Assembly (NCBI GenBank): GCA_963770975.1
Contig: CAVYRM010000001.1
Coordinates: 127,792 to 191,791 of the forward strand
DNA: 64,000 nucleotides
Origin: an uncultured delta proteobacterium
GTDB lineage: Bacteria > Desulfobacterota > Deferrimicrobia > Deferrimicrobiales > Deferrimicrobiaceae
Direction: 5' to 3'
Shown here: positions 22,493 to 38,760 of the stretch, piece by piece
Layout of the letters: every line of letters starts with the position of its first letter
How positions within the stretch are numbered: the first letter of the stretch is position 1
Notes under the pieces: model-generated
Told to the model about the DNA's origin: nothing
What the model saw: the letters and a program-made list of their open reading frames with translations, nothing else
Databases searched by the model: none
Position numbers and translations under genes: made by a program

Positions 22493-23500
22493 ATGTTCCA
22501 GAGAAATTGGAAGCAATTGATCAAGCCGCGCCGCATCGAGGTCCAGACCGATACGGCGACGTTCAATTACGGCAAATTCGTGGCCGAACCCCTCGAGCGA
22601 GGGTTCGGCACGACGCTCGGAAACGCGATCCGGAGGGTCCTCCTTTCATCCCTCCAGGGCGGCGCGATCACCTCGGTATTCATCGAGGGCGTGCAGCACG
22701 AGTTCTCCACGATGCCCGGCGTCGTCGAGGATGTGACCGATATCGTCCTGAACCTGAAGGAGATCCGGCTCCGCATGCACTCTCCGGAGCAGCGCACGCT
22801 CACCCTGGAGGCCAAGGGGCCGCGGCGGGTGAAGGCGTCGGACATCTCCCAGGACCCGATGGTCGAGATCCTGAACCGCGACCATCACATCGCCGAGCTC
22901 TCCGCGAACGCCACCCTTCGGATGGAGATGAACGTCCGCATGGGAAAAGGGTACGTTCCCGCCGAGGGGAACCTCGAGGAAGGCACCCCGATCGGCACCA
23001 TTCCGATCGACGCCATCTTCTCCCCGATCCGGAAGGTGAACTTCACCGTCACCAACGCCCGCGTGGGACAGCAGACCGACTACGACCGCCTGACCCTCGA
23101 AGTCTGGACCGACGGATCCGTGCTGCCCGCCGATGCCGTGGCCTACGCCGCGAAGATACTGAAGGACCAGCTCACGGTCTTCATCAACTTCGACGACGAG
23201 GCCGAGGCTCCGGACGAGCCGGCGCGTCTCGACGAGGTCTCCGGGAACGAGAATCTCTACAAGCCGGTCGAGGAGCTTGAGCTCTCCGTTCGCGCGTACA
23301 ACTGCCTGAAGAACGCGGACATCAAGTACATCGGGGAGCTCGTGCAGAAGAGCGAACAGGAGATGCTGAAGACCAAGAACTTCGGGAAGAAGAGCCTCAA
23401 CGAGATAAAGGACGTGCTTGTCGGAATGGGATTCTCCCTCGGAATGAAGATCGATGGGTTCACGCCGGAAAAATACAGCCCGCCTCGGAAAGAGGATTGA
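22493..23500 (+). CDS. rpoA: DNA-directed RNA polymerase alpha subunit
   Basis: [17 protein letters not shown]... The C-terminal domain is present. The ATG at 22493 is preferred over the track's start at 22469. Confidence 0.96.
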
Positions 23501-23524
23501 GCACCGAGCCAGCGAGGATGACCT

Positions 23525-24076
23525 ATGCGCCACGCGATTGACCACAGGAAACTGGGAAGAAGTCCCTCACACCGGAAAGCCCTGTTGCGGAACATGATGA
23601 ACGCGCTCGTCCTCGCCGAACGGATCGAGACCACTGTTCCCAAGGCAAAGGAACTTCGAAGGATGGCCGACCGCCTGATCACCCTCGGAAAGCGGGGAAC
23701 GCTCCATTCCCGCCGCCGGGTGTTCTCCCTCCTGAGCGACAAGGAGTGCACGGACAAGGTGTTCGCCACGCTCGCCGGGCGGTTCACCGGGCGCGCCGGC
23801 GGATACACGCGGATCGTCCGGACCGGGTACCGCGCCGGGGACGGGGCGGAAATGGCGATCATCGAATACCTGCCCGTCGAGGAGAAGAAGGCCGGCCGGA
23901 AGGGGAAGAAGAAAACCGCGTCGAAGAAGGAGCCGGCGAAAACCGCCGCGAAGAAGGAAGCGAAGGGGAGCATCGCGTCGCCCGGCAGGAAGAGAAAGGA
24001 AAGCGCCCCGAAAGAGGCGAAGCCGAGGGCGACGAGAACGAAAACGCAGAAAACGCCGGAGGGCGGCCAGGGATAA
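23525..24076 (+). CDS. rplQ: 50S ribosomal protein L17 with a ~60 aa Lys/Ala/Glu-rich C-terminal extension
   Basis: [24 protein letters not shown]... is the L17 core over ~120 aa. It is followed by [27 protein letters not shown].... Confidence 0.95.
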
Positions 24077-24108
24077 TTCGGACCGACGACCCGATTCCAT
24101 ATGCATTC

Positions 24109-24140
24109 GACAACGGCCCTTCGGGGCCGTTGTCGTTTTC
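24109..24140 (+). terminator. rho-independent terminator after rplQ
   Basis: GACAACGGCCC-TTCG-GGGCCGTTGTC is a perfect GC-rich hairpin followed by GTTTTC. Confidence 0.7.
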
Positions 24141-24164
24141 GGGCCCCGGCGCGGACGAATCCGC

Positions 24165-24212
24165 TTGACGCTCCCCGGGGCCCGGGATACTATGAAAATG
24201 AATTTCATAATC
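24165..24212 (+). promoter_or_regulatory. fur/feoB promoter with an overlapping Fur box
   Basis: TTGACG at 24165-24170, a 17-nt spacer, then TACTAT at 24188-24193. GAAAATGAATTTCATAATC at 24194-24212 matches the GATAATGATAATCATTATC consensus at 14 of 19 positions. Confidence 0.55.
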
Positions 24213-24216
24213 ATAA

Positions 24217-24684
24217 TTGGAGCGGCCCCCCGCCTTGAAGCATCTTCTCGGACGCATCGATCGTGAAATCCTGGACGCCGGCGGGAAAAGGAGCCGGAGC
24301 CGGTCCGTGGTGATGGAGCGTTTCTTCGGATCGCGCGAACACGTCACCGTGGAGGAGCTCGCCCGCTCCGTGAGGAAGAAGCACCCGGGGGTGGGGACCG
24401 TGACGGTTTACCGCACCCTGAAACTCCTGGAACGGATGGGTTACGCGAAGGAACTGGATTTCGGCGAGGGCGTGAAACGGTACGAAAGCAACCTCGCGTC
24501 GCATCATGACCACCTCGTCTGCAGGAAGTGCGGCACGGTCATCGAGTTCGAGAACGCGAACATCGAAAAGCTCCAGGATTCCGTCACGCGGCAGCACGGC
24601 TTCCACCCCACGGCCCACCGCCTGGAAATCTACGGGTTCTGCCGCCGATGCACCCCCGGGGAAGGCACGGGGGGCGCCGGATGA
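24217..24684 (+). CDS. fur: Fur-family transcriptional regulator (probable ferric uptake regulator)
   Basis: HHDHLVCRKCGTVIEF and the C-terminal CxxC match the Fur family. It sits in front of feoB. Confidence 0.85.
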   Translation: MERPPALKHLLGRIDREILDAGGKRSRSRSVVMERFFGSREHVTVEELARSVRKKHPGVGTVTVYRTLKLLERMGYAKELDFGEGVKRYESNLASHHDHLVCRKCGTVIEFENANIEKLQDSVTRQHGFHPTAHRLEIYGFCRRCTPGEGTGGAG

Positions 24685-26651
24685 AAACCGCCTCGATCGT
24701 GGAAACCGCGCAGAACCCGGTGATCCTCGTCGGCAATCCGAACGTCGGGAAAAGCGTCGTTTTCGGCGCTCTCACGGGCAGGTACGTCAACGTCTCGAAT
24801 TACCCGGGCACGACCGTCGAGATCTCCAGGGGAGAGGCGCGCGATCGCGGCACGACCTACGAGGTGATCGACACCCCCGGCGTCTATTCGCTCCTGCCCA
24901 TGTCGGAGGACGAGCAGGTCACCCGGGATATCCTGATGCGGGAGCCCGGCGCGAAGGTCCTGCAGGTGTGCGACGCCAAGAACATGCGCCGATCGCTGAT
25001 GATCACCGTTCAACTCTCCGAGATGGGGGTCCCGCTCGTCCTGGCGGTGAACATGGCCGACGAGGCGAGGGAATGCGGGGTGATGCCGCGCCTGGAATCC
25101 CTCGAGGGCCGGCTGGGGGTACCCGCGGTCCCCACCGTGGCGGTACGGAAAAAGGGTACGGACCGTCTCCTCCCGCTCCTCGTGCATCCATCGCCCTCCA
25201 CCATCCGGATCGACTACGGGGAGAAGATCGAGGCGGCCATCGTGCGGATGGAAAGGCTGCTTCCGGAGGAAACCCCGGTCGGCAAGAGGGCGCTCGCGGT
25301 CATGCTGCTTTGCGGGGACGACTCCCTCGGACCCTGGATATCGGAGAACGTACCCGTCGCGCGCATCCGGGAAATGAACGACGTGAGGAACCGGCTGGTC
25401 GAGGAATCGGGGGAGGAGATCGTCTTCCGCGTGAACCAGGCCCGGCTCTACTGGATCGACCAGTTGCTCGAGGAACTGGGCGTGGAATCTTCCGCTCCCG
25501 CCGGGAGGAGCATCTCCACGGCGTTCGGGCGATACGCGATGGACCCGGTCTACGGGGTCCCGATCCTCGTCGGCGTTCTCTTCCTGGCCTACGAATTCGT
25601 GGGGGTGTTCGGCGCGGGGTTCCTCGTGGACCTGCTGCAGAAATCGTTCTTCGAGAAGTGGATCATTCCGTCCATCGCCGCGCTGATCGACCGGTTCCTG
25701 CCCTCGGCATTCCTGCGGGACTTCCTGGTGGGCCCCTACGGGATGATCTCCATGGCCCTTTCCTACGCGGTCGCGATCGTCCTGCCGATCGTCGGGACGT
25801 TCTTCTTCGGGTTCGGGATCCTGGAGGATTCCGGGTACCTTCCGAGGCTCGCGGTGATGGTGGACCGCCTGTTCAAGAAGATCGGGTGCAACGGCAAGGC
25901 GGTCCTCCCGATGATCCTGGGCCTGGGTTGCGACACGATGGCGACGTTGACCACGAGGATCCTCGAAACGCGGAAGGAACGGATGATCGTCACGCTGCTG
26001 CTCGCCCTGGGCGTCCCGTGCTCCGCGCAGCTGGGCGTGATCCTCGGCATGCTCTCCGACGTGGGGCCGGCGGCGACCATCACATGGCTCGCCTTGCTGG
26101 TGGGCATCATCCTGCTGGTCGGGTTCCTCGCCTCGAAAATCATCCCCGGGGACTCCTCGGACTTCATCCTCGAGATCCCGCCCATCCGGTGGCCGAAGGC
26201 GGGAAACCTTGCCGTCAAGACGATGGCGCGCATCGAGTGGTACCTGAGGGAAGCGGTCCCGCTGTTCCTCCTCGGCACGTTGATCCTGTTCGCAGCGGAC
26301 CGGCTCGGATGGCTGTCGTGGTTGCAGAAGGCGGGCGAGCCGTTGATCGTCCGGGTCCTCGATCTCCCGCCGAAGGCGATGGAGGCGTTCCTGATCGGGT
26401 TCCTCCGGCGGGACTACGGGGCCGCGGGGCTCTTCAGCATGGCGAAGGCCGGGATGCTTTCCCACCTCCAGGTGGTGGTGAGCCTGATCACCATCACGCT
26501 CTTCATTCCCTGCCTTGCGAATCTCCTCGTGATCGTGAAGGAGCACGGGGGGAAGGTCGCGGCAGGGATGGCGTTGTTCATCTTTCCCTTCGCGCTGCTG
26601 GTCGGGGCCGCCGTAAACCTCGTCGCGCGCTGGGCGGGGATCGTTTTCTGA
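24681..26651 (+). CDS. feoB: ferrous iron transporter FeoB
   Basis: N-terminal G-domain VILVGNPNVGKS..DTPG. Polytopic C-terminal half. 656 aa. Its ATG overlaps the fur stop (ATGA). Confidence 0.93.
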   Translation: MKTASIVETAQNPVILVGNPNVGKSVVFGALTGRYVNVSNYPGTTVEISRGEARDRGTTYEVIDTPGVYSLLPMSEDEQVTRDILMREPGAKVLQVCDAKNMRRSLMITVQLSEMGVPLVLAVNMADEARECGVMPRLESLEGRLGVPAVPTVAVRKKGTDRLLPLLVHPSPSTIRIDYGEKIEAAIVRMERLLPEETPVGKRALAVMLLCGDDSLGPWISENVPVARIREMNDVRNRLVEESGEEIVFRVNQARLYWIDQLLEELGVESSAPAGRSISTAFGRYAMDPVYGVPILVGVLFLAYEFVGVFGAGFLVDLLQKSFFEKWIIPSIAALIDRFLPSAFLRDFLVGPYGMISMALSYAVAIVLPIVGTFFFGFGILEDSGYLPRLAVMVDRLFKKIGCNGKAVLPMILGLGCDTMATLTTRILETRKERMIVTLLLALGVPCSAQLGVILGMLSDVGPAATITWLALLVGIILLVGFLASKIIPGDSSDFILEIPPIRWPKAGNLAVKTMARIEWYLREAVPLFLLGTLILFAADRLGWLSWLQKAGEPLIVRVLDLPPKAMEAFLIGFLRRDYGAAGLFSMAKAGMLSHLQVVVSLITITLFIPCLANLLVIVKEHGGKVAAGMALFIFPFALLVGAAVNLVARWAGIVF

Positions 26652-26854
26652 TGGCGGGAGAAACCGTGAAGATCCCGTGCCCGCTTTGCGGGTTCGAAAT
26701 CGATCCGTCGGACCGGGCCTGCCGGTCGGGATGCCCCATGGGAAAGGGATGCACCCTTGTCTGTTGCCCCAGATGTCGCTACTCTTTCCCCATGCCGGAG
26801 TCGAAGACCGTGAATTTCCTCAAGACCCTTCTCTCGAAAGGAAGCCGGAGATGA
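26651..26854 (+). CDS. small Cys-rich protein (67 aa, 8 Cys), a putative metal-binding Feo accessory of unknown function
   Basis: MAGETVKIPCPLCGFEIDPSDRACRSGCPMGKGCTLVCCPRCRYSF.... Its ATG overlaps the feoB stop (TGATG) and its stop overlaps the next gene's ATG (ATGA). It is the tail of track ORF 24506..26854. Confidence 0.55.
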   Translation: MAGETVKIPCPLCGFEIDPSDRACRSGCPMGKGCTLVCCPRCRYSFPMPESKTVNFLKTLLSKGSRR

Positions 26855-27498
26855 CCGAGCAAGGACAGGACGAGATCCTCGAACTCCTGTGGACGCTTCG
26901 GGAGGAGGGGAGGGCGACCCGGTCCGAGCTGCTTCGTTCGACGACGGAAGCAAGCCCCGAGCAGCTGCTCGAGGAGATCCACGCCGGAGGCCTTGTCGAC
27001 GCGTCCCGGGACGAGATCCTTCTCACGAAGAGCGGCGAGGACCGGGCGCGGGGGATCATCCGGCGCCACCGGCTTGCCGAGGTGCTCCTGCAGAACCTGT
27101 TCGAACTGGACAACACCCAGCTGGAACACAGCGCCTGCCAGTTCGAGCACATCCTTTCCGAGCCCGTGGTGGAGAGCGTCTGCACGTTCCTCGGGCACCC
27201 CCCCGTCTGCCCCCACGGGCGGTCCATCCCGAGGGGGGAGTGCTGCAACCGGATCCGCACCGAGATCCGCCCCCTGGTCATGCGGCTGACCGAGGCTTCC
27301 CTCGGGACGACGGTCCGGATCGTGTTCATGACCCCCAAGTCGAAAAAACGGCTCGAGAAGCTTTCCGCCCTCGGGATCGTGCCCGGAAGCCGGCTGAGGA
27401 TCCTCCAACGGACCCCGTCGTACGTCCTCCAGATCGGCCAGACCACCGTGGCCGTCGACCGGGATATCACCGATGAGATCTACGTCAAGGTATCGTAG
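26851..27498 (+). CDS. DtxR/IdeR-family metal-dependent repressor with a C-terminal FeoA/SH3-like domain
   Basis: RRHRLAEVLL...HSACQFEHILSEP is the DtxR metal-site signature. The C-terminal VRIVFMTPKSKKRLEKLSALGIVPGSRLRILQ is FeoA-like. Preferred start is MTEQGQDEILELL at 26851. Confidence 0.8.
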   Translation: MTEQGQDEILELLWTLREEGRATRSELLRSTTEASPEQLLEEIHAGGLVDASRDEILLTKSGEDRARGIIRRHRLAEVLLQNLFELDNTQLEHSACQFEHILSEPVVESVCTFLGHPPVCPHGRSIPRGECCNRIRTEIRPLVMRLTEASLGTTVRIVFMTPKSKKRLEKLSALGIVPGSRLRILQRTPSYVLQIGQTTVAVDRDITDEIYVKVS

Positions 27499-28768
27499 GG
27501 CCGTCGCGCTCTTCCTTTCCGTCTCCCTCGTCGCGGGGACCTTCACGCCGGCTCTCGCCGGTGATCCCGTCGGGACGAGGCAGCCCGCGCTCCTGCTGAA
27601 GTACGCCGCGCCGGACCTCCCGGATGCGGAGGCCCGCAAGGTGCTCGATCCCCTGGCCGGGATCCTCGGAAAGGAGCTCCAGGTCCGCTGGCTTCCCGTT
27701 CCGTCGGAAACCCCCCGGGATGGCCGGGCTCCCGGCGTTCCCCCCGTTCCCGACGACACCGCCCTGCGGCGGATCGCGGGAAAACTCACCAGGGCATCCC
27801 GGTCGATGGACAAGCTGGAGACTTCGGAAGCCGCAAGGGCGCTGGAGGAGGCCGAGAGGGAGTGCCGGTCGTACCGGTTCACGGATGCGACCAGGCCGTT
27901 TCTCGCCGAAATCTTCCTCCGCCGGTCGATCCTGCGCTTCTGGAAGGGAAAAACCTCCGAAGCGGAGGCGTTGGCTGCCCGCGCGCGGGCGATGCGCCCC
28001 GGGTTCTCCCCGGACCCTGCGATGTATTCCCCGCAATTCCTGTCCCTCTGGGAGGCCGCGAAGCGACGCCCCGTGCCGGAGGCGGAACTCCTGGTCCAGT
28101 CCCTCCCTTCCGGCGCGGAAATCTTCATCGACGGGGAGCGGCAGGGGGTCACCCCCTCGCGCGTCAGGATACGGAAGTACGCCCCGCTGCGGGTCCGGGT
28201 CTCCCACCCCGGTTACCGGGACGAGGAAAGGACCGGCCAGTGGCTTCCAGGGGATACGGAGATCCTCGAATTCACCCTGTCGGGCGACCGGGTGGCCCGC
28301 CTCGGAGACCTCCTGTCGCGGGCACCCCGCGAGAAAGGCGCCGGAACCGGCCCTCTGCTGGAAGAGCTCTCCAAGGCGGCGGGAACGGGTCGAGTGGCCG
28401 TATTGACGCTGGAAAAGGATGGAAACGGGGGAGGGTGCCTCGCGCGCCTGTACGGCCATCGGACGGGCGGACGGGACCTGGCCCTTCTCGGGGAGAAGGT
28501 CGTGGCCGGGGGGGAGGAAGCCGCGGAGGTATCCGGGTCCTGGGCGGCGAACGCGCTTGCAGCCGACGGATGGCCGCGTGCGGAACGCGTCGAAAGTCCG
28601 TGGTACTATAGTGCCTGGTTTTGGCTGGGGGTAGCATCGGTTGCGGGATTGGCCGTCGCCCTGGGGGGGGGAGGCGGCGGAGACGGAGGAGGAGGGACCG
28701 GCGGAGGGGGCACCGGCGGAGGAGGAACCGGCGGCGCCACGGACGGTACCGTCGCAGTGAATTTCTAA
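27473..28768 (+). CDS. secreted/membrane PEGA-domain protein with a C-terminal TM helix and a Gly-rich (GGGGT)n tail
   Basis: Signal peptide VALFLSVSLVAGTFTPALAG. PEGA-like SLPSGAEIFIDGERQGVTPSRVRIRKYAPLRVRVSHPGY. TM helix WFWLGVASVAGLAVAL, then GGGGGGDGGGGTGGGGTGGGGTGGATDG. Confidence 0.6.
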   Translation: MRSTSRYRRAVALFLSVSLVAGTFTPALAGDPVGTRQPALLLKYAAPDLPDAEARKVLDPLAGILGKELQVRWLPVPSETPRDGRAPGVPPVPDDTALRRIAGKLTRASRSMDKLETSEAARALEEAERECRSYRFTDATRPFLAEIFLRRSILRFWKGKTSEAEALAARARAMRPGFSPDPAMYSPQFLSLWEAAKRRPVPEAELLVQSLPSGAEIFIDGERQGVTPSRVRIRKYAPLRVRVSHPGYRDEERTGQWLPGDTEILEFTLSGDRVARLGDLLSRAPREKGAGTGPLLEELSKAAGTGRVAVLTLEKDGNGGGCLARLYGHRTGGRDLALLGEKVVAGGEEAAEVSGSWAANALAADGWPRAERVESPWYYSAWFWLGVASVAGLAVALGGGGGGDGGGGTGGGGTGGGGTGGATDGTVAVNF

Positions 28769-28799
28769 CCTCGGGAAAAGGCAGGGGCCGCATCCCCCC

Positions 28800-30140
28800 A
28801 TGAGCTGGATCCTCACCATTCTCCTGTTGCTCGTCTCCGTGGAAACCTTCGCGGCGGACGCCGAAACCGTGATCCGGGGTCTCGGGAACACGAAGATCAT
28901 CCGTTCGAACGAACCTCCCCACACGATCCTAAACGAAGCCTGCGTCGCGTGCCATCCCAAGGAAAAATTCGAGTACTGGCTTCTCATCTACAAGGGAAAG
29001 GCGCCTTCGCTGACCGTTGACCGGCCGGAAGGCAGCGATCAACGGGCCGGCACCGAAGCAGCCCCCGTTCGCGGGAAGACCAACCGGTACAATTCCCACG
29101 ACTCCCTCGCCTGCAATCTGTGCCACTTGCAGAACCCCACGGAAGCGGCCCCCAAGTTCATCGTGGACGTCGCCGACCTGTGCCGGCTGTGCCATCCGGG
29201 CACGGGGATGCACCACCTCCCCGATCCCGCCGGCCTGGCGCTGGTGAAGAAGGCGATCCTGGGCAGGAAACTGCCCGGAAGGGACGGGGAGCCGCTGTGC
29301 ACGACGTGTCACAAGACCCACGAATCCACCTACACGATGCGCCAGGTATACGCCGAGACGCTCTGGGAAGGGAAGGTTCCCAACCCCCACGGGAGCAGGA
29401 TGCTCTGTTTCGCCTGCCACACAGGACGGATCAAGGAAGGACAGGAAATCCGCCTCACGACGGGAAGGGACAACATCAAGCTCTGCAACGCGTGCCACAC
29501 GAAGCCGGGGGTGAAAAAGAGCCCGCACATCGTGGACGCGACCTCCTCCGAGGGGACGTGGAGGATGGATTACCTCGGGTATCCCCTCAACCAGGGGAAG
29601 CTCGTCTGCTCCACCTGCCACGACGAGGTCTCCCACGGGAAACGGGACCCCGCGAACCCGAAATTCCTTCGGGGCGGCCCGTACGCGGACCCGGACAAGT
29701 TCTGCTATCGTTGTCACCTGGAGGACAAGGATGTCTACAACAACCCCCACCGCCAGGTCGACGGGTTCGGGAGAATCCGGGCGGAGTCCTGCCTCTTCTG
29801 CCACCGCAACAACCCGGATGCGGGAAAGGACGTGCCGGCGAACCGCGAGATGGTGGCCGAGGACCGGGTGGTGTGCTCGAACTGCCACCAGCTGCGCGCG
29901 CACCCCGGCGTCGATCACCTGATTCTCCTGAAGGGGGAGAAGGCCGCCCGGAAGGAAGAGTACGAACGGAGACAGCAGATTCGCCTGCCCCTTGCCGGAG
30001 ATGGGAAGATCACGTGCAGCACATGCCACAACCCTCACGCGAAGGGGGTTCTGAAGGGGGAGAGCGGCGTGGGCGGCGGCTCGAAATGGCGCGTGCCGGA
30101 CTTCAGGGAGGTCTGCGCGCCTTGCCACGGTAGATACTGA
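28800..30140 (+). CDS. dodecaheme c-type cytochrome, periplasmic or outer
   Basis: Signal peptide MSWILTILLLLVSVETFAA. 12 CxxCH motifs. Confidence 0.88.
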   Translation: MSWILTILLLLVSVETFAADAETVIRGLGNTKIIRSNEPPHTILNEACVACHPKEKFEYWLLIYKGKAPSLTVDRPEGSDQRAGTEAAPVRGKTNRYNSHDSLACNLCHLQNPTEAAPKFIVDVADLCRLCHPGTGMHHLPDPAGLALVKKAILGRKLPGRDGEPLCTTCHKTHESTYTMRQVYAETLWEGKVPNPHGSRMLCFACHTGRIKEGQEIRLTTGRDNIKLCNACHTKPGVKKSPHIVDATSSEGTWRMDYLGYPLNQGKLVCSTCHDEVSHGKRDPANPKFLRGGPYADPDKFCYRCHLEDKDVYNNPHRQVDGFGRIRAESCLFCHRNNPDAGKDVPANREMVAEDRVVCSNCHQLRAHPGVDHLILLKGEKAARKEEYERRQQIRLPLAGDGKITCSTCHNPHAKGVLKGESGVGGGSKWRVPDFREVCAPCHGRY

Positions 30141-30164
30141 AGAACGACCCGACCGGAGGAAGCG

Positions 30165-30830
30165 ATGATCGACCTGTTCGTGAAAGGGGGATTCGCGATG
30201 TACCCCCTGCTGATCCTATCCGTGGTGACGCTCGCGATCGCCATCGAGCGGACGGTGTACCTGCGCAAGGCGCGGATCAACACGGGGGAGTTCATGGAAA
30301 CCATCAACAGCTTCCTCTCCAGGAACGCGCTGGAGGAAGCGCACCGGTACTGCGATTCCACTTCGGGTCCGATCTCCCGGATCATCAAGGCGGGACTGAA
30401 GAACCAGAAACGAGGCCGGGAAGACGTGATCCGGTCCATCGAGGACGCCGGCGCGATCGAGGTCGCCCAGCTGGAGCGGGGGATCCTCATCATACAGACC
30501 ATATCGAAGCTCGCCCCGCTCATCGGGCTGTTCGGCACCGTGACCGGGATGATACGCTCTTTCCAGGCGATCGGAGGCGCCGGCGGGGAGAATCCCAGGC
30601 TGGTCGCCGCGGGGATCGGCGAGGCGCTGGTCGCCACCGCGGCCGGGCTGGTCGTCGCCATACCGGCGTACTTCCTGGCGTTCTATTTCATGAACCGGGT
30701 GAGCAAGTTCATCCTGGAGATGCAGAAGAGCTCGATCCAGTTCCTCGACGGCCTGGGCGAGCTCGAGGAGATGATCGCGGAGCGCACCCAGCGGTTCGAC
30801 ACGGTGGGAGGAGACTACCTTGAAGTTTAA
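30165..30830 (+). CDS. exbB: MotA/TolQ/ExbB proton-channel protein
   Basis: 3 TM helices. The family signature region LIGLFGTVTGMIRSF is present. Confidence 0.85.
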   Translation: MIDLFVKGGFAMYPLLILSVVTLAIAIERTVYLRKARINTGEFMETINSFLSRNALEEAHRYCDSTSGPISRIIKAGLKNQKRGREDVIRSIEDAGAIEVAQLERGILIIQTISKLAPLIGLFGTVTGMIRSFQAIGGAGGENPRLVAAGIGEALVATAAGLVVAIPAYFLAFYFMNRVSKFILEMQKSSIQFLDGLGELEEMIAERTQRFDTVGGDYLEV

Positions 30831-31221
30831 GAGAAGGCTCCAGGGAGACGAGGAGGGGATCCCGATCACCAACCTCGTGGACGTGCTCTTTCTGCTGATC
30901 GTCTTCTTCATGATGTCCACGGTGTTGAGTTTCGACCGCGGATTCGGGGTGAAGCTTCCGGAAAGCGGGGCCGCCGGGACGATCTCGAACAAGGGCGTCA
31001 GCGTGCTGATCTCCCGCGAGGGGAAGGTGTACGTGGACGGGAACGAGACGCCGATCGACCGCGTGGGAGAGGTGGTCAAGGCGCGGCAGCGGACGGCCGG
31101 GAACAACGTCGTGCTGAAAAGCGACCAGGACACGCGGTTCCAGGCGATCGCCGACGTGATGGACCGGCTGCTCGCCGTCGGGATCGGGGACCTCTCCCTC
31201 CCCGTCCTGGAAAGAAGGTAG
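30820..31221 (+). CDS. exbD: ExbD/TolR biopolymer transport protein
   Basis: Single N-terminal TM helix ITNLVDVLFLLIVFFMM plus a periplasmic domain. Its start overlaps the exbB end. Confidence 0.85.
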   Translation: MKFKRRLQGDEEGIPITNLVDVLFLLIVFFMMSTVLSFDRGFGVKLPESGAAGTISNKGVSVLISREGKVYVDGNETPIDRVGEVVKARQRTAGNNVVLKSDQDTRFQAIADVMDRLLAVGIGDLSLPVLERR

Positions 31222-31234
31222 GAGAGGCAACGCC

Positions 31235-32110
31235 TTGGAAGGGAAGGGCGTACGGAGGGTATTGCAGCCGGCCTTGTACCTCGGCATCGCGATCCTCGTC
31301 CACGCCCTCTTATTCCTCGTCCCGTCCGGGACCGGATCGAAACCCGCGGACGGGACCACCCGGGGGATGCGGATCCGCGCCGTCGCGGCCCCCGGAAGGG
31401 CTCCTTCGCCGCCGGTCACACCCTCTCCCGCCCGCTTGGCGCCGCAGACCGCGGAGATACCACCGAAGTTCGGCACCGGTCCGAAGGGTCCCCAGGGATC
31501 CGAACCGGCATCCGGATCCGGGGGAACCCCGGGCGGGGGTGGCGGTCCACCGGTGGACGGCGCGGCGACGCCGGGTGCCCCGCCGGTCGGAGAGTACGCG
31601 GCGTACATCGCCCGCTTGCGGTCCGAAGGGGTGCAGGGATGGGCCCGGGACAGCGCGAGCCGGATGCGCCAGGGATGGAAAGGCACGGGGAAAGGCGGAG
31701 GGGGGTTGGGGATCGGGTATGGAGCCGGCGCGGGAGCCGGAGCGGGTGGGCGCGGAGGGGGAAGCGGCCGCAGCGGCGGGGGTGGAACGGGTGACGGCTA
31801 CCTCGACTCGCGGGTGCGGATGGTGGTGACCAGCTACCCTCCGACCACGATCGAAAGACGGTTCACGATGGTGGCGTACCCGGACCTGAAGGTGAAGAAG
31901 CACGAGTACACCGCCGGGTGGTGGAACGTGTTTATCCAGATGCGGACCGATGCCTCGGGGAAGGTGACGCAAACCCGGGTTCTCCGGCCGGAAACGGACG
32001 GACCGCTGGAGAGGATCTTCGTGGACCAGGTGCGCAAGGAGATCGGCCGGTGGACCTTCGATCGCGCGGCCGCCGAAATCAACGTCGACGTGCGGTTCTA
32101 TGTCGAATAG
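31235..32110 (+). CDS. tonB: TonB-like energy transducer
   Basis: N-terminal TM anchor ALYLGIAILVHALLFLV. Pro/Gly-rich spacer. The C-terminal ~80 aa domain resembles the TonB C-terminal domain only weakly. Confidence 0.6.
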   Translation: MEGKGVRRVLQPALYLGIAILVHALLFLVPSGTGSKPADGTTRGMRIRAVAAPGRAPSPPVTPSPARLAPQTAEIPPKFGTGPKGPQGSEPASGSGGTPGGGGGPPVDGAATPGAPPVGEYAAYIARLRSEGVQGWARDSASRMRQGWKGTGKGGGGLGIGYGAGAGAGAGGRGGGSGRSGGGGTGDGYLDSRVRMVVTSYPPTTIERRFTMVAYPDLKVKKHEYTAGWWNVFIQMRTDASGKVTQTRVLRPETDGPLERIFVDQVRKEIGRWTFDRAAAEINVDVRFYVE

Positions 32111-32867
32111 GTCGGCAACCGCCGTTTTTCGCCGGGTTTGCTTTCCTTTCGCCGTCATCGGGGTGCTGGTTTCCGGCGCATCCCTCGCATCCGACCAGGA
32201 AGGGTGCCTCCTTTGCCACCGTCTGTCCCTCCGGGTGGTGGTCGACGGGACGGAAAGGAACCTGAAGGTAGACGATCGAGCCGCCTGGATCCACGAGGCC
32301 CTCTTCTGCTCGGATTGCCACCCGGATGCCAGGAACGCCCCGCATCCGGCACCTCCGGGCGCCGCACAGTGCATCGGGGAGTGCCATGGAGGCGGGGAAG
32401 GCGCGATCTCATCGCATCGGAGAGCCGCCTTCGGCGGGTTGACCGAAACCCACAGGCGGGTCAGCCCGGGGAAAGGCGCCTGTTTGCCGTGCCACAGGGC
32501 TTCGGACGCGAAAACGGGACATGCGGCGACGGAACGACGGTGCGACGGGTGCCATCCCGGGGAGCGGGCCGCCGCGTCGAGAGGGCCGCACGCCCGCCTG
32601 GCGGATTCCCCCGGATTCTGTTCCGGGTGCCATCCGCCGCATCCCGCGTTGACCGGAAAGGGGGATCCGACGATCCAGGCCTGTGCCGCGTCCGGCTGCC
32701 ATGCCCGGGTGTCCCCCGCGATGAAGGCGTTGGCCGACCATCGAACATCGCGCGGGGCGGGCAGCGGAATCGGGAAGGCGGCGCTTTTCTTCCTCCTGGC
32801 CTGTGCGGGATGGCTCGCCGGATCGGCATTGTCCCCGAAGCCGGGTCGCGGGGAGGGAGGAACATGA
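32100..32867 (+). CDS. heptaheme c-type cytochrome with a C-terminal membrane anchor (CbcA-like)
   Basis: Signal peptide. Five CxxCH motifs plus CIGECH (CX3CH) and CAASGCH (CX4CH). C-terminal hydrophobic AALFFLLACAGWLAG. The ATG at 32100 overlaps the tonB stop. Confidence 0.8.
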   Translation: MSNRSATAVFRRVCFPFAVIGVLVSGASLASDQEGCLLCHRLSLRVVVDGTERNLKVDDRAAWIHEALFCSDCHPDARNAPHPAPPGAAQCIGECHGGGEGAISSHRRAAFGGLTETHRRVSPGKGACLPCHRASDAKTGHAATERRCDGCHPGERAAASRGPHARLADSPGFCSGCHPPHPALTGKGDPTIQACAASGCHARVSPAMKALADHRTSRGAGSGIGKAALFFLLACAGWLAGSALSPKPGRGEGGT

Positions 32868-33802
32868 ACTGGATCCAGCCTCCCGAAACGGTCCGGAGAT
32901 TCACGATCCACCAGATCCTGCAGCACGGATTCGCGGTGGCGCTGTGGGTCCTTCTCCTCGGGAGCGCGATCGCGGCCGGGTGGGGAATCTCCGGCGTGCG
33001 TTCCCTCCATGCGGTCGTCGGAATCGCGGGCGGAGCCTTCATCGTGTACCATGCGCTGACACTGGCGGCGATCGGGATCCTCCTCGACATGCCTGCCGAG
33101 AGAATCGCTTTCCTTCCCTGGGGGCGGGACTGGGATGCGATCCGCCGCCGGAAGGGGAGCACCGAAGACCCGGGTAAATACGTTCCGGCGGAGAAAGGGG
33201 ATTACCTCGCGATCCTGGCATGGAGCCTGTTCGCGGTCCTGTCCGGGATCCTTCTTCGATGGCCCTCCTTCTTCGGCGTCCCGGGATCCGGCGCGTACGA
33301 CTGGATCCGCGCCGCGCACGCCGGGTTCGGCGCCTCGCTCACGGTCCACATCCTCGTCGTCCACCTTCCCGGCCGCTGGACGCACGCTTCCCCCGCGTTC
33401 CGACGCGCCGTCCTTTCCGGCACCGTTCCGCTATCGGAGGCGGAAAAGAGGGGGGGGTGGATCCGCGACCTCGTTGCGCTCGGAGTGCTCGTCCCCGCTC
33501 CCGAGGAAACCGTCACGGCGGAGGAGAAGGAATCCGGGACGGTCAGGGAGTTGCTGGAGCGGGGAAACCGCCTTGTCCGCGAAGGGATGTACACGGAAGC
33601 GTGCGATGCCTACGAGGCGGCGCTTCGCCTGTTGCCGGACTATTCGCAGGCGCGGTTCAACTTCGCGGTCGCGCTGTTCCGGGGAGGGCGCAGGGAGGAA
33701 GCGACGACGCAGTTGAGGATATTCCTCGAAAAGGATCCCTTCAACCCGATGGTGGAGAAGGCGAGGGGAATGATCGAGGAGATCGAGGGGTCCGCGGAAT
33801 GA
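32864..33802 (+). CDS. diheme b-type cytochrome membrane subunit (FdnI/HyaC/CbcB-like) fused to a C-terminal TPR domain
   Basis: VRRFTIHQILQHGFAVALWV is the cytochrome b RFxxxxRxxH signature. 4 TM helices carry conserved His. The C-terminal ~100 aa is TPR-like (YTEACDAYEAALRLLPDYSQARFNFAVALFRGG). The ATG at 32864 is the preferred start. Confidence 0.75.
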   Translation: MNWIQPPETVRRFTIHQILQHGFAVALWVLLLGSAIAAGWGISGVRSLHAVVGIAGGAFIVYHALTLAAIGILLDMPAERIAFLPWGRDWDAIRRRKGSTEDPGKYVPAEKGDYLAILAWSLFAVLSGILLRWPSFFGVPGSGAYDWIRAAHAGFGASLTVHILVVHLPGRWTHASPAFRRAVLSGTVPLSEAEKRGGWIRDLVALGVLVPAPEETVTAEEKESGTVRELLERGNRLVREGMYTEACDAYEAALRLLPDYSQARFNFAVALFRGGRREEATTQLRIFLEKDPFNPMVEKARGMIEEIEGSAE

Positions 33803-34344
33803 AGCGAATCGCCGAACGCATCGGGCCGGCCGCGGCCGTCGTCGCGACACTGCTCCTCTTCTGGACCGTGGCCAGGGGAGGAAGCGGGCACGTCAGGAAG
33901 GTCCCTTCCCGTACGGCATCGGCTTCTTTTCACGGCGACGGCACGATCCGCGAGGTTCCCCCGGATCCCGACTGCGCCGGACCGAAATGCCATGCCGCAT
34001 CCTCCCATCGGGCGTCGGGGCCGCGGAGCGCTTTCCTCAACCAGCACGCGGAAATCGTCTCCTGCCTGGGCTGCCACGGCCGGGAGCCGGAACGCGGATG
34101 GGGCGTGCCGAAAGATGGAGGAAAGGGTGGGATTCGCCTGGTCTACTCTCCAAGCCCGGAGCCCGGGAAGCAACACGCCGGTATCGGTCCACCGGCCTCC
34201 TGCACCCGGTGCCATTCGCCTGAAGGCCGGCGAGCGATCCTCTCCGCCGGGGTGAAGGGACTGGGAGAAGGGTTCGATTCGCCGATCGCTCTTCGGATGA
34301 TCGAGGGGGGAGGACGAAAGTGGGTCCCGGACGATATGCGATAA
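33799..34344 (+). CDS. small triheme c-type cytochrome
   Basis: Signal peptide. CAGPKCH (CX4CH), CLGCH and CTRCH. The ATG overlaps the preceding stop (ATGA). Confidence 0.7.
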   Translation: MKRIAERIGPAAAVVATLLLFWTVARGGSGHVRKVPSRTASASFHGDGTIREVPPDPDCAGPKCHAASSHRASGPRSAFLNQHAEIVSCLGCHGREPERGWGVPKDGGKGGIRLVYSPSPEPGKQHAGIGPPASCTRCHSPEGRRAILSAGVKGLGEGFDSPIALRMIEGGGRKWVPDDMR

Positions 34345-35210
34345 CGGCGTTCCTCCTCTTTCTATGCGCGGCGTTGCCGACCGGCTCGGCACGCGGCGCG
34401 GAGGGGGGGAGCGATGCGATCTGGATACGCCAGGCCCAGTCCCGGCAGCTCTCGACCCCGTACGACGTGGCCGTGGACCGGAAAGGGGTCGTCTTCCTGC
34501 TCGAATCCGGTGCAAGGACCATATCGATCTTCTCCCCGCGGGGAGAGTTCCTCCGCGAGATCGCCGGAAAGGGAGGATGGAAGGATCCCTCGGCGATCGC
34601 GATCGGATCGTCCGGCTCGATTTTCCTCGCGGACGGCGTCGGATCCAGGGTATTGGAGATCGATCTCTCCGGAAAGGTGAAGAGGGAGTACGTCGTAGGC
34701 GGAAACGCGAGAGTGACGGGGGTTTCGGTTCTTGGAGACGCGGTCTACTGCGTGGACAACCGGAACCACCGGGTCGCGGTATTCCGGAAGCCCGGCGTCC
34801 CGCCGGAATTCTGGGGAAAGCGGGGGGAAGGCCCGGGGCAGTTCCAATCCCCGTTCCGGATCGCCGTCGATTCTTCCGGACGCGTATTCGTCACGGACGT
34901 CCTGAACGCGCGCGTGCAGTGGTTCACCGCGTTCGGCCGACACCTCGGGACCCTGAAACGATTCGGGGCGGCGGAGGGAAAGATCTTCCGCCCCACGGGG
35001 ATCGCCCTGGACCTTCGAGGCCGGATCTGGATCGGGGACAGCTACACCGGCCTGGTGCAGCTTTTCGGGGAAGGCGGCGAATTCGCGAAGACGCTTCGCG
35101 CGAAGGGACGCCCCGTCGTCTTCGGCGACCCCGTCGGGCTGGCCGTGGCGCCGGGCGGCATCTGGGTTGCGGACCAGCGGGAGAATCGCCTGGTCCTGTT
35201 CCGGGACTGA
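34320..35210 (+). CDS. secreted NHL-repeat six-bladed beta-propeller protein
   Basis: Signal peptide ITAFLLFLCAALPTGSA. Repeated motifs YDVAVD/IAIGSSGSIFLAD/VYCVDNRNHRVAVF/IAVDSSGRVFVTD/IALDLRGRIWIGD/LAVAPGGIWVAD are characteristic of NHL repeats. Confidence 0.8.
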   Translation: MGPGRYAITAFLLFLCAALPTGSARGAEGGSDAIWIRQAQSRQLSTPYDVAVDRKGVVFLLESGARTISIFSPRGEFLREIAGKGGWKDPSAIAIGSSGSIFLADGVGSRVLEIDLSGKVKREYVVGGNARVTGVSVLGDAVYCVDNRNHRVAVFRKPGVPPEFWGKRGEGPGQFQSPFRIAVDSSGRVFVTDVLNARVQWFTAFGRHLGTLKRFGAAEGKIFRPTGIALDLRGRIWIGDSYTGLVQLFGEGGEFAKTLRAKGRPVVFGDPVGLAVAPGGIWVADQRENRLVLFRD

Positions 35211-35229
35211 AACGGGAAGGAGCGCTGCG

Positions 35230-35436
35230 ATGGGAAACATGAAATGGGAATACGGCCAGATCTTCGTTCGTCAACCGGATGTGTTCGGAGGGCTTCCGAA
35301 AAACGGGCTCGAAATGGAGAAGATGAACCGCGCGGGCACGGAAGGGTGGGAGATGGTCGGGGTGGTCCCCTTCACCATCCCTTCGGGGGAAGTACGCGGT
35401 GCGTTCATCCTCTTCAAACGGGAGATCGCCGGCTGA
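35230..35436 (+). CDS. small DUF4177-like protein
   Basis: MGNMKWEYGQIFVRQ...GWEMVGVVP...AFILFKRE, 68 aa. The start at 35230 is preferred over the track ORF's 35167. Confidence 0.55.
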   Translation: MGNMKWEYGQIFVRQPDVFGGLPKNGLEMEKMNRAGTEGWEMVGVVPFTIPSGEVRGAFILFKREIAG

Positions 35437-35455
35437 ACCGGACGGCGGACATCGA

Positions 35456-38217
35456 TTGAAACGGTTCATCGTCCCCCTCGTACTCCTCCTCGCCTTCCTT
35501 GCGGAAGGACGCGGGAATGCAAGGCCTGCCTTCGACCAGGAGAAATGCTCCCTTTGCCACATCAAGGAGAGCGTGTTCTTCGACTCCTCCTTCCTGCCGC
35601 CGGACGGGTTGAAATCCTTCGGGGAAGAGCGTCTTTGCGGAAGCTGCCACAACGGTTCCGTCCAGGACAGCCGGGCCGAACTGTGGAGGGGAACGCAGCA
35701 TCCGGCCGCAGGGTCGGGAAAAGGGAGGTGCACGGGGTGCCACTCTCCGCATGCCAAGGGGGGGTGGGGAGCTCTCGCGGGGAACGGGGCGTCGTTGAGA
35801 AAGGGGGGGAACGCCCTCTGCGGAGGGTGCCATGCGGCACAGTCCGGGAACGGCGGACTCCTGCACGGAAAGCAGATCGGGAATGCCGGATGCAAGGAGT
35901 GTCACGTCGCCCACGGCGGAACCGGGAAGGCCCTGCTTCGCGATACCGGGAGCACGCTCTGCCGGAGATGCCACGGATCGATCAATCCGGAGAAGGACGG
36001 CGGCCATCCCCTCGACGGCAGGAAGGTGCGGGCCGGTGAATCCGCGGCGCTGCCCGGCTGCCTGGCGTGCCATCCCGTCCACGGGAAAAAGGGCGATACG
36101 GTGGACCTCGCCGACCGGTGCGGCTCCTGCCACGCATTCGGGGGAAAAGGGAAGGGGGCCGAGACCCGGTCGCACTCCGGCGTGGGAAAGTGCACCACGT
36201 GCCATACGTTCCACTCGCGGACCGGGGATGGCGGCCGTGCATTCCGCGGAAAGGATATCCGGTCGGATGCGTTGTGCCGGTCGTGCCACCCTTCCTTCAA
36301 CGCCGCGGATGTCCGGGCGGGACGGGCTGCCGGCACGCACGTCACGATCTCCGGGGAGGGACGCCGCGACATCTGCGGCCGTTGCCACCAACTGCACGGC
36401 GCGCCCGCCGGGACACCGCTGCTTCGCTCGCGAAAGTCCTACTTCTGCCTGGACTGCCACGACAGCCAGAACACGATCCGGGAGAGCAGCGGCATCTCGC
36501 TGGCGCATCCCGTGTTCGAGAAGGTCACGAAAGGGCGGCTGGCCGACGTGGTCCGGGAGAAAAAGGTTGCGGTCGGCCCGGCCGGAGAGATCATCTGCGC
36601 CACCTGCCACAAGGTGCACGGAGCGGAAAAGGAGACGCCGCTGCTCGCTTCCGGGGCCGACAAGGGGGAGAGCTGTTCCTGGTGTCACCCGGGCATGCGT
36701 GGGAAATCCCACGGAAAGACCGGCGGCTGGACGTCTCCCGGATGCGATGGGTGCCACCCGGTTCACGGACGAAAGAGTGCGGACGGCGACCCGTGGGGCC
36801 TGCTCTGCCGAAAATGCCATCCGCGGTCTTCCGCGCACCAGGCCGGAATCGGCGATCGCGTCACGGGCAGGGCGATGGACCTCCCGGAGTTCGATCCGCG
36901 GGGAAGAACGGCCGCGTACGGTGCCATCACATGTCCGACGTGTCACGACCCCCACGGGGACAGCGCCCTGCCGAAACGCCTGCGGAAACAGTACCGGCCG
37001 AACGGCTTCCTCTGCACCACCTGCCACCGGTCCCAGGACACGGTCGTCCTCACCCCCCACGATCTGCGGGGCATCGCGGGGGATGGCGTCTGCGAACCTT
37101 GCCACAAACCCCATGCGGGGGAATCTCCGTGGATGTGGGGATTGGCGAGGGGGGCAGGCGAAACGGGGGAGGAATCGTGCCGGGCCTGCCACCTCGCGGG
37201 AGAAGGGAAGGGACTGGGAATGCCGGTCCCCCGGGGGGGGCACCCGACGAACGTCCTTGCTTCCCGCCCCCTTCCGGACCGGTTTCCGAGGATCGGACCC
37301 GAAGGTCGTTTCTCCGAAACGGGGGTCATCTCCTGCTCCACATGCCACGTCGTGCACGGCCGCGGAGTCATGCCGGTGGGCCAGGGAGTCGGAAAACTCC
37401 TGCGAGCTTCGGATGCTTCCCGGAGCAACCCCGTCCGCCATCGGCGATCTGCGCGGAATGCCACCCGGGGAAGGACCGCCGGCACGGGGCGGCGGACTGT
37501 CTCGCCTGTCATCCTCCGCACAGGGATGAAAAGGCGGGAGCGGCCTGCCTGAAATGCCACCCCGGCCAGAAGGGCGCACTGGTCGAACGACACGGGAAAA
37601 CGGGGGCCGCCTGCGGTTCCTGCCACAAGTTGCACGCCAAGGATGCGGAGGCGGGAAATTCCGGGGAACGCTGCGTCCGTTGCCATTCCACCACCCGGAA
37701 GATCCTGAAAACCCCCCATGCGGCGCTGGGAGCGAACGCCTGCGACGGGTGCCACCCGGCCCACAAGGAAATCCAGGTTCACACCTTCCGCCCGAAGCTG
37801 GGCGAGGAGATATTTCCACCGGACCTGCTGTGCCTGCGATGCCATCGCGAAGGAAGAACGGCCCCGGCGCCGAAGTGGCCGAACCATCCGGCGCGTACGC
37901 AGGAGGTGCCGACGAACTACGGCGCGAAAGTCATCCTGGAAACCCCGGTCACGATGGTGGGTCGGTACAAGGAGGGTTCACGCCCGATGTTCCCGCTGTT
38001 CGACGCGGCAGGGAAGCCGGCGCTCTCCGGCACGATGGGGTGCCTGACCTGCCACGATCCCCATGCCGGGGGCGCACGGAACGACAAACCTGCGGCGAAT
38101 GCCTACCTTCGGGATGCGAGCTCGGTTTTTCTGGCCGAAATTTGTGGTTCCTGCCACAAGGAGAATACGGTGGAAAGGGTCCGGAAATTCCACGTCATGC
38201 CGAGAGTGCCGCGATAA
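35456..38217 (+). CDS. giant ~30-heme c-type cytochrome, apparently frameshifted at about 37400-37450
   Basis: TTG at 35456 gives the signal peptide MKRFIVPLVLLLAFLAEGRGNA. 21 CxxCH motifs lie in the frame of ORF 35399..37552. 9 more lie in the frame of ORF 36067..38217. Adding one C to the C4 run at 37429-37432 joins them (..SNPRPPSAICAECHPG..). Confidence 0.7.
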
Positions 38218-38273
38218 AGGAACATTTCCTGCGAACGTTCGACCGCATTTTTCGATATGATGTTGGACACGAC

Positions 38274-38657
38274 ATGGGACGGATTGGCGACAGCAAAGAG
38301 GTGACGATCCCCCTGAAGAACCCGGGACGGGGGAAGCGGAGGATACCGCTGTTCATCGCCGCCGGTCTCGTCTTTGCGGCGGTGTTCATCTCCCTCTTCC
38401 GGGACATGGGCGTCGTGGACAGTTGGAAGCTCGATCGAACGGAACGGCAGCTGCGCGAGGAGGTCGTGAAGCTTCGGCAGGAAAACGCGATTTTGAAACA
38501 AACGGTCGAGGACCTGCGCAGCAACCCTGCGGTCATCGAACAGGAAGCCCGGCGGATCGGTCTCATAAAGGAGGGGGAGAACGTGATCGTCGTTCCCCCG
38601 AAACCGGATGCCTCCTCCAAATCGCCCGTAAAACCCACTCCAACGAAGCGTCCATAG
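38274..38657 (+). CDS. ftsB: septum formation initiator FtsB/DivIC-family protein
   Basis: TM helix IPLFIAAGLVFAAVFISLF, then the coiled coil LDRTERQLREEVVKLRQENAILKQTVEDLRSNPAVIEQEARR. 127 aa. Confidence 0.75.
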   Translation: MGRIGDSKEVTIPLKNPGRGKRRIPLFIAAGLVFAAVFISLFRDMGVVDSWKLDRTERQLREEVVKLRQENAILKQTVEDLRSNPAVIEQEARRIGLIKEGENVIVVPPKPDASSKSPVKPTPTKRP

Positions 38658-38694
38658 GGCACAGGAGCGTCTTCCTACGCCGTGCCGGGGCACG

Positions 38695-38723
38695 TTGACA
38701 CCTCTGCCGGATAGGGGATAAAC
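38695..38723 (+). promoter_or_regulatory. candidate sigma70 promoter for argS
   Basis: TTGACA at 38695-38700, a 17-nt spacer, then ATAAAC at 38718-38723, which is a weak -10. Confidence 0.3.
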
Positions 38724-38760
38724 TGCCTACTTTACGAATATTTATCCATCGAGGGGGCAG

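Follow-up and report, generated by a model that had tools for sequence, protein, structure and literature searches.

The 64-kb window analysed here, i.e. the whole stretch of contig CAVYRM010000001.1 under study (an uncultured member of the Deferrimicrobiaceae), carries an exbB-exbD pair, a gene for a TonB-like adaptor and a heptaheme cytochrome gene in direct succession. The genes of interest all lie on the + strand of the window, the GC content of which is 62-68%. The same gene order recurs in distant lineages, and the link between motor and cytochrome genes is therefore not incidental. This arrangement, present in several uncultured lineages, suggests that a Ton-type motor serves an electron-transfer apparatus and not classical nutrient import. 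We lean, if only slightly, towards regarding the triad as a working proton-driven Ton/Tol-class motor which belongs to the cytochrome module and not to a siderophore receptor. The argument turns on four genes:

30165..30830, + strand: ExbB/TolQ-type proton-channel subunit (PF01618, E 3.7e-33, 114 bits)
30820..31221, + strand: ExbD/TolR-type subunit (PF02472, E 7e-22, 78 bits), overlapping exbB by 11 nt
31235..32110, + strand: divergent TonB/TolA-like transducer of 291 aa, with a transmembrane (TM) helix containing His23, a linker and a C-terminal domain of ~100 aa
32100..32867, + strand: heptaheme c-type cytochrome of CbcA-like architecture, with signal peptide and C-terminal membrane anchor

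Motor proteins and the TonB-like adaptor

The first two genes were assigned to exbB and exbD in a preliminary description of this DNA, and the family matches bear this out. The translations also show the key membrane residues, namely the motif GEAL..TA.GL..AIP in TM3 of ExbB and an Asp in the membrane helix of ExbD (NLVDVLFLL), so that both proteins have the Pfam families and the residues of stator proteins. Scores against the NCBIfam equivalogs were all below the cut-offs, both for ExbB (106 bits with TolQ, cut-off 221; 87.5 with ExbB, cut-off 206) and for ExbD (51 bits with TolR, cut-off 127; 37 with ExbD, cut-off 123), and identity at equivalog level was obtained neither with ExbB/ExbD nor with TolQ/TolR. 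The nearest ExbB genes outside the module (43-44% identity) sit in exbB-exbD(-exbD)-TonB_C clusters, and the slot after exbD is therefore the TonB position.

The open reading frame (ORF) in that slot is a real gene, since its GC3 is high along the entire length (0.82 overall, 0.87 in the C-terminal third) and its product has more than 100 homologues at 90% clustering. The preliminary description had named it tonB. As a matter of family profiles this name did not hold: the protein gave no PF03544, TolA or other Pfam match at E<=0.1, and its C-terminal domain was not recognised by the TonB profiles (PF03544 / TIGR01352). The last 106 residues gave only faint NCBIfam matches, to the AgmX/PglI C-terminal domain (E 0.01, 16 bits against a cut-off of 40), a Leptospira TonB-like model (E 0.03) and E. 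coli TonB (E 0.05). When profiles of the adaptor family were run against PDB sequences TonB was not found, and the Gly-rich linker of the full-length profile gave low-complexity matches only.

As a TonB/TolA-type protein, the assignment stood. The membrane helix, predicted at residues 7-28, carries a His as in TonB, and this His23 is invariant in 39 sequences, long variants included. Alignment of 36-39 homologues showed a spacer which is first Pro-rich and then Gly-rich, with two conserved helices, followed by a strongly conserved C-terminal domain of ~100 residues with the terminus VDVRFYVE. AlphaFold2 gave a confident model of both membrane helix and C-terminal domain (pLDDT 73-95 for the latter, as means of 10-residue blocks). 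The predicted order of the domain is strand-helix-strand-strand-helix-strand, in keeping with the TonB fold, a 3- or 4-stranded sheet packed on helices. Foldseek searches with the adaptor returned matches at probability 0.92-1.0. FusB was both the best of these (E 0.01) and the highest in sequence identity (27-29%; 7zc8, and 9hi3 in complex with ferredoxin), and TolA domain III was also among the fold matches. With hhalign, adaptor residues 234-290 aligned in register with residues 178-232 of E. coli TonB, a weak match (probability 43%, pairwise E 2.4e-4).

We also searched 1.84 billion representative proteins with a profile of the C-terminal domain (E<=1e-3) and obtained 63 proteins, of which at most 62 are true representatives at 50% identity; P0105, a C2H2 zinc-finger repeat protein, was rejected as a false positive. 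Apart from this protein, all matches outside the adaptor family were PF03544 proteins. The weakest significant ones, P0157 and P0158 (library-wide E ~1e-4), each contain three genuine PF03544 domains, and P0153, a HEAT-repeat protein of 2076 aa, matched the profile at E 1.8e-8 and TonB_C faintly (E 0.031). The remote homology to TonB_C seen by hhalign and the profile search is suggestive, not strong. Wherever a locus extends far enough to reveal the neighbours, the adaptor gene lies directly 3' of exbD. Since the results of fold comparison and hhalign agree with those of the reverse profile search and with the position of the gene, we conclude from sequence and predicted structure that the product of 31235-32110 is in all likelihood a divergent TonB/TolA-type transducer which current family models miss.

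Compared with TonB-ExbB-ExbD of the E. coli type, the triad shares the exbB-exbD-adaptor order, the ExbB and ExbD matches with their key TM residues, and an adaptor with one His-bearing TM helix, a Pro-rich spacer and a TonB-fold C-terminal domain of ~90-100 aa. It differs in that this domain escapes the PF03544, TIGR and NF models for TonB, has an extra N-terminal strand (RVxMVVTSYP) and ends in the invariant VDVRFYVE, and in that the genes always lie among multiheme cytochrome genes; neither the window nor the vicinity of any homologue has a TonB-dependent receptor. Longer adaptors of 394-468 aa (L003 2349-3749; L016 4056-5240; L018 9005-10327) carry an Ig-like insert of ~150 residues in place of the spacer, which is helical in the lineage of the window; this region has a faint CarboxypepD_reg match, whereas neither the His-bearing helix nor the C-terminal domain varies.

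The segment RVxMVVTSYP, which forms the first strand of the C-terminal domain (residues 193-202; 31811-31840 in the window), is nearly invariant. The TonB box of receptors has the consensus xTxVVTA. The strand resembles this consensus and, speculatively, might fill the box-binding edge of the domain in cis.

Gene order, receptor census and the overlapping cytochrome start

Related loci were obtained by exact-protein look-ups and by a scan of species-representative genomes, and all window proteins were mapped on to them. The more than 20 loci come from metagenome-assembled genomes (MAGs) labelled Deferrimicrobiaceae/Deltaproteobacteria, Poribacteria and Rokuibacteriota, together with one further lineage (L020). 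Their order is: 12/13-heme cytochrome, ExbB, ExbD, TonB-like adaptor, heptaheme cytochrome, b-type cytochrome with tetratricopeptide repeats (b-type/TPR), small cytochrome, NHL-repeat propeller, DUF4177-like protein and giant cytochrome. From the 12-heme to the giant cytochrome it was the same in every locus of sufficient length; tblastn gave no match for the heptaheme cytochrome in L018 and L019, and the small cytochrome was found in the closer loci and not detected in L015-L019.

The close relatives are labelled Deltaproteobacteria or Candidatus Deferrimicrobiaceae (MBNT15 / Deferrimicrobiota group, PMC9386147), and there, just as in the window, the block is flanked by the ribosomal-protein/rpoA/rplQ operon on one side and divIC-argS on the other. 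In the distant loci, namely L015 (Poribacteria, GC 54%), L016, L018 and L019 (Rokuibacteriota, GC 64-70%) and L020, the module occurs without a fur, feoB, dtxR or PEGA gene. The neighbours of the distant modules are unrelated genes (e.g. KaiC, radical SAM, HAD, thioredoxin-like, G6PD), in many cases on the opposite strand. Every locus found via the C-terminal-domain family that is long enough to show its neighbours carries the module. All members found come from metagenome-assembled genomes or metagenomic contigs. The tonB-cytochrome adjacency reported for this single stretch is thereby seen to recur, conserved across distant lineages in a module of 9-10 genes.

The absence of a TonB-dependent receptor from the window had been noted earlier, and is confirmed by our census. 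Every ORF of at least 400 aa was assigned, either to a Pfam-identified gene or as a shadow ORF overlapping one. These ORFs comprise RpoC, EF-G, SecY, FeoB, ArgRS, the trp genes, LptD, LepA, the pyr/car genes and the cytochromes. Within the first 24 kb are rpoC, fusA, the ribosomal-protein operons, secY, rpoA and rplQ, and within the last 25 kb are argS, the trp operon, accD, lptD, lepA and the pyr/car genes. Among the window proteins scanned with Pfam there were zero matches to PF00593 or PF07715, and LptD (50861-53323) was the sole match to an outer-membrane barrel family. Nor was a TonB-dependent receptor, with a TonB box on which the adaptor could act, found in the flanks of the homologous loci checked, and a search of the module and of the flanks of related loci for an outer-membrane barrel of any kind gave none.

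The heptaheme cytochrome is tied to the adaptor at the level of the reading frames. Translated from the ATG at 32100, its product has a signal peptide before the first CXXCH, seven heme motifs (5 CXXCH, 1 CX3CH and 1 CX4CH; 7/7 aligned in orthologues) and a hydrophobic helix at the C-terminus, as expected of a CbcBA-type heptaheme subunit. In Geobacter, the CbcBA genes (GSU0593-0594) encode an anchored seven-heme cytochrome followed by a b-type cytochrome (10.1101/2021.04.15.440034). Compared by architecture and gene order with CbcBA of Geobacter sulfurreducens, an inner-membrane quinol oxidoreductase, the window likewise has a C-terminally anchored seven-heme periplasmic cytochrome directly 5' of a putative four-helix b-type cytochrome. 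The label CbcA-like, given in the preliminary description, is therefore reasonable at the level of architecture. Unlike in Geobacter, the b-type subunit here has a C-terminal TPR domain, and the Geobacter operon as described has no exbBD-tonB.

The 3' end of the adaptor gene reads TTC TAT GTC GAA TAG, in which T-AT-G provides the heptaheme ATG at 32100, so that the two genes overlap by 11 nt (32100-32110) just as was first reported. The heptaheme start lies between -10 and +56 nt of the adaptor stop in 20/20 loci. An ATG embedded in (T/C)AT-GTN is retained in 13 of these 20, and the remainder start with TTG at -7 or at +6 to +56 nt. Tyr codons in the window are TAT in just 13% of cases, and in two loci Tyr has changed to His, yet the embedded ATG is kept. 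The retention of the ATG despite a codon bias against TAT argues that the overlap is beyond chance, the 20 loci being phylogenetically related so that the count carries no strict probability. Further down, the heptaheme and cytochrome b genes, and the cytochrome b and 3-heme genes, overlap by 4 nt each. Judged by the gene overlap, adaptor and heptaheme cytochrome may be co-expressed stoichiometrically, as had been proposed.

Translational coupling of the tonB-like, heptaheme and cytochrome b genes would also suit a scheme in which the adaptor is a passive scaffold and ExbB/ExbD mainly a proton path. The complex would then modulate, or be gated by, the proton-motive force at the CbcBA-like quinol oxidase, e.g. 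helping electron transfer to low-potential acceptors, and would do no mechanical work at the outer membrane. There is no precedent for such a scheme, and the conserved long linker and the TonB-fold domain imply a distal binding partner; we consider it very improbable.

Equally improbable is the proposal that the triad is the TolQ-TolR-TolA of this lineage, i.e. a Tol-Pal-like envelope or division system to which the cytochrome neighbours are unrelated. The motor class is the same, the TolQ and TolR models gave the top NCBIfam equivalog scores, and TolA domain III appears among the fold matches. However, those scores fall far under the TolQ/TolR cut-offs, and the block has no gene for TolB (PD40), Pal (OmpA-like) or CpoB, its neighbours being cytochromes, the NHL propeller and the b-type/TPR protein. 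The TPR domain is fused to the b-type cytochrome, the propeller is of the NHL type, and divIC is unlinked outside Deferrimicrobia. The gene set moves with the cytochromes as a unit across lineages, a distribution which is module-specific and not universal.

Other genes of the module and the iron-linked block upstream

Besides the four genes given above, the module in the window comprises:

28800..30140, + strand: secreted 12-heme c-type cytochrome (12 CXXCH), first gene of the conserved module
32864..33802, + strand: putative four-helix b-type cytochrome with C-terminal TPR domain, Ni_hydr_CYTB family by orthology; ATGA overlap with the heptaheme gene
33799..34344, + strand: small membrane-anchored cytochrome with ~3 heme motifs (2 CXXCH and 1 CX4CH)
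34320..35210, + strand: secreted NHL-repeat six-bladed beta-propeller (PF01436, E 3e-20), conserved in the module
35230..35436, + strand: DUF4177-like protein of 68 aa without signal peptide (PF13783, E 7e-5, 23.4 bits, cut-off 25)
35399..38217, + strand: giant multiheme cytochrome with ~27 CXXCH, in two ORFs (35399-37552 and 37552-38217; 21 and 6 CXXCH)

The 12-heme cytochrome gene is always directly 5' of exbB. Its product matches the Cytochrome_C7, Paired_CXXCH and MtrC/F domain II/IV families, with a partial match to the DmsE family. The segment ETVIRG at its mature N-terminus was considered as TonB-box-like; it is kept in Deferrimicrobia and Poribacteria, and the candidate was dropped because neither the Rokuibacteriota loci nor L020 have it. 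The Rokuibacteriota loci carry a DUF6982 protein (PF22478, E 1e-22) directly 5' of the 13-heme cytochrome or fused to it (L018 5952-6425; L019 ~6028).

The b-type/TPR protein has four membrane helices and five invariant His. PF01292 matched 4/6 of its orthologues (best E 2e-12), and the window copy gave no match at E<=0.1. In L015 (10458-12410, from a MAG labelled Poribacteria) the heptaheme and b-type/TPR proteins are fused in a single ORF of 650 aa, with PF01292 above threshold, which argues that the two work as one complex. A TolB-box-like N-terminus was sought on the NHL propeller and nothing was found outside the first propeller strands. The DUF4177-like protein is the best conserved of the module, with 56-89% identity across lineages.

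The giant cytochrome is split into ORFs of 717 aa and 221 aa by a frameshift near 37441, beside a C run. In L001 it is a single ORF of 923 aa, and the tblastn alignment changes frame at 37441; the frameshift is either an assembly error or the mark of a pseudogene. In other lineages the protein has 1098-1197 aa and 29-30 hemes. From heme spacing in solved multiheme cytochromes we estimate that a cytochrome of 27-30 hemes is presumably long enough to cross the periplasm.

Two features of the surroundings may be recorded here. A secreted AhpC/TSA thioredoxin-like protein adjoins the module in two distant lineages (L015 5947-6960; L018 18785-20098) and may be a thiol reductase of cytochrome maturation. 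In L001 (17451-19565) and L002 (17384-19564) a GAF-GGDEF gene lies between divIC and argS; it is absent in the window (38217-38761).

Directly 5' of the module the window has an iron-linked block, a feature beyond the preliminary description:

24110..24140, + strand: terminator-like hairpin after rplQ, perfect 10-bp stem ACAACGGCCC/GGGCCGTTGT, loop TTCG, tail CGTTTTC
24165..24193, + strand: sigma-70-like promoter match 5' of fur (TTGACG-17-TACTAT)
24194..24212, + strand: putative Fur box, AT-rich palindrome GAAAATGAATTTCATAATC, 14-15/19 against the E. coli consensus, abutting the promoter match
24217..24684 (start 24217 or 24274), + strand: fur (PF01475, E 4e-35)
24681..26651, + strand: feoB, with FeoB_N, Gate and FeoB_C domains; 4-nt overlap with the fur stop
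26851..27498, + strand: DtxR-type metal-dependent regulator fused to a FeoA domain (PF02742, E 4.5e-23; PF04023, E 7e-13)
27473..28768, + strand: secreted PEGA-domain protein (PF08308, E 5e-7)

The hairpin, the T-rich tail of which has only 4 T and which was missed by the terminator scan, marks the upstream boundary of the block. The promoter match is weak, being one of two promoter-like matches on the + strand in 23400-39000 (fur and argS), a number not above the shuffled expectation. A Fur-box-like site is present 5' of fur in 9/9 related loci checked (12-16/19, weakest in L010). From the Fur box to the end of the giant cytochrome gene the genes overlap or are less than 35 nt apart, except for a gap of ~200 nt between feoB and the regulator. 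The hairpin, promoter match, Fur box and near-continuous gene spacing make it probable that in the lineage of the window the module is co-regulated with fur, feoB and the DtxR-FeoA regulator. In this lineage it is probably tied to iron, with Fe(III) reduced and the resulting Fe(II) taken up by FeoB. The PEGA protein, in which a signal peptide and a helical region are combined with a C-terminal hydrophobic helix and a poly-Gly tail that ends in VAVNF, is restricted to the Deferrimicrobia form of the locus and had no match in the Poribacteria or Rokuibacteriota loci. We considered it as a counterpart of the Ig-like insert of the long adaptors, and BLASTP showed no similarity.

Because the module follows a Fur-box/fur-feoB-dtxR/feoA block, some weight is gained by an explanation in which the triad is an ordinary iron-uptake Ton system, energising receptors encoded elsewhere and having cytochromes as neighbours through a shared iron regulon (fur, feoB, dtxR/feoA). 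Ferric complexes would then be imported into the periplasm and reduced there by the cytochromes, and Fe(II) would pass through FeoB. TonB systems are classically iron-regulated, which fits this explanation, as do the conserved Fur box, the three iron genes and the near absence of intergenic space down to the motor genes. It also draws on the TonB-dependent receptor SO_2907 of Shewanella, which is reported, in work cited in PMC5603553, to contribute to dissimilatory iron reduction. However, neither fur nor feo accompanies the module in the Poribacteria, Rokuibacteriota and L020 loci, and no receptor was seen in any flank checked. The adaptor C-terminal domain is far from PF03544, and each retrieved member with enough flanking sequence sits in the module. 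The ~49 hemes of one module protein set would, moreover, be costly under iron starvation. We therefore doubt that iron uptake is the function of the triad.

Proposed role of the motor

We infer both the action of the motor on the cytochrome system and the way in which it would work from the gene identities, the adaptor fold, the synteny, the translational coupling and the absence of a receptor. In the scheme we favour, the ExbB-ExbD stator and a highly divergent, periplasm-spanning adaptor of TonB/TolA type would be co-inherited, dedicated subunits of a multiheme-cytochrome module. Electrons would pass, outward or inward, between the quinone pool and the periplasmic and outer cytochromes by way of a CbcBA-like quinol:cytochrome c oxidoreductase formed by the b-type/TPR protein and the anchored heptaheme cytochrome; the secreted 12-heme, small 3-heme and 27-30-heme cytochromes and the NHL propeller would be further members of the path. 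Proton flow through ExbB/ExbD would pull the adaptor by its His-bearing membrane helix, the C-terminal domain, like that of TonB and TolA, would pair beta-strands with a partner at the outer side of the periplasm, and the pull would energise the assembly, positioning or gating of a cytochrome conduit at the outer membrane.

Several points weigh against this scheme. The module is without any outer-membrane protein, no protein in it has a conserved TonB-box-like segment, and conservation of ETVIRG in the 12-heme cytochrome does not extend to the Rokuibacteriota loci or L020. The adaptor itself stays below the Pfam and NCBIfam thresholds. In the lineage of the window, the Fur box and the proximity of feoB are just as compatible with an iron-uptake Ton system. 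The evidence is all comparative, and no cultured organism or experiment was found for the module.

In a more specific form of the proposal, the partner to which the adaptor binds directly would be a multiheme cytochrome or the NHL propeller, and the proton-motive force would serve to insert, extend or gate a conduit across the envelope that has up to 30 hemes and needs no porin; we offer this tentatively and think it rather unlikely. A direct cytochrome-pulling motor, by analogy with the TonB homologue FusB, which binds ferredoxin directly, would likewise have the adaptor C-terminal domain bind a module cytochrome or the propeller and not a barrel, the proton-motive force threading, extending or retracting the cytochrome through the envelope. 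FusB as the top match in both identity and Foldseek, the coupling of the adaptor gene to the heptaheme gene, and a module that is self-contained and barrel-free speak for such a motor. Against it, no module protein shows a conserved binding motif, and the similarity to FusB is limited to the shared TonB fold. We give it little credence.

FusB (Pectobacterium, ferredoxin import) and HasB (heme/hemophore receptor) resemble the protein studied here as TonB-fold adaptors apparently dedicated to one iron- or redox-protein system. Both act via a TonB-dependent barrel, FusA and HasR respectively, whereas the module has no linked barrel and the homology is remote. The Agl-Glt gliding machinery of Myxococcus (AglRQS motor, TonB-like GltG/GltJ) offers a likeness of another kind, namely a Ton/Tol motor in a non-import role working through divergent TonB-like adaptors, and the AgmX/PglI C-terminal model was the top faint NCBIfam match of the adaptor domain (E 0.01). 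However, that match reached only 16 of 40 bits, no Glt proteins are present, and the partners here are cytochromes.

No description of the module was found in full-text searches of the literature on Ton/Tol motor genes with multiheme cytochromes, NHL repeats, MBNT15 or Rokubacteria. The genome paper on MBNT15 (PMC9386147) discusses cytochrome clusters and leaves TonB and ExbB unmentioned. A further outcome of the analysis is a TonB-like family missed by Pfam and NCBIfam, the members of which are only called hypothetical in the source records.

In our view the module joins a motor of the Ton/Tol class to a dedicated set of partners that is new. Such motors power nutrient import, envelope maintenance, gliding and secretion. 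If the scheme we favour is true, electron transfer across the cell envelope would join these tasks, and the finding would bear on how diderms without a recognisable porin-cytochrome complex bring electrons or very large cytochromes to the surface. Should the adaptor bind its partner directly, several uncultured phyla would possess a mechanically energised electron conduit. The set of 9-10 genes is compact and occurs in environmentally widespread groups that are uncultured (MBNT15/Deferrimicrobia, and MAGs with the label Rokuibacteriota or Poribacteria); being compact and conserved, it offers heterologous expression and structural studies a well-delimited target.

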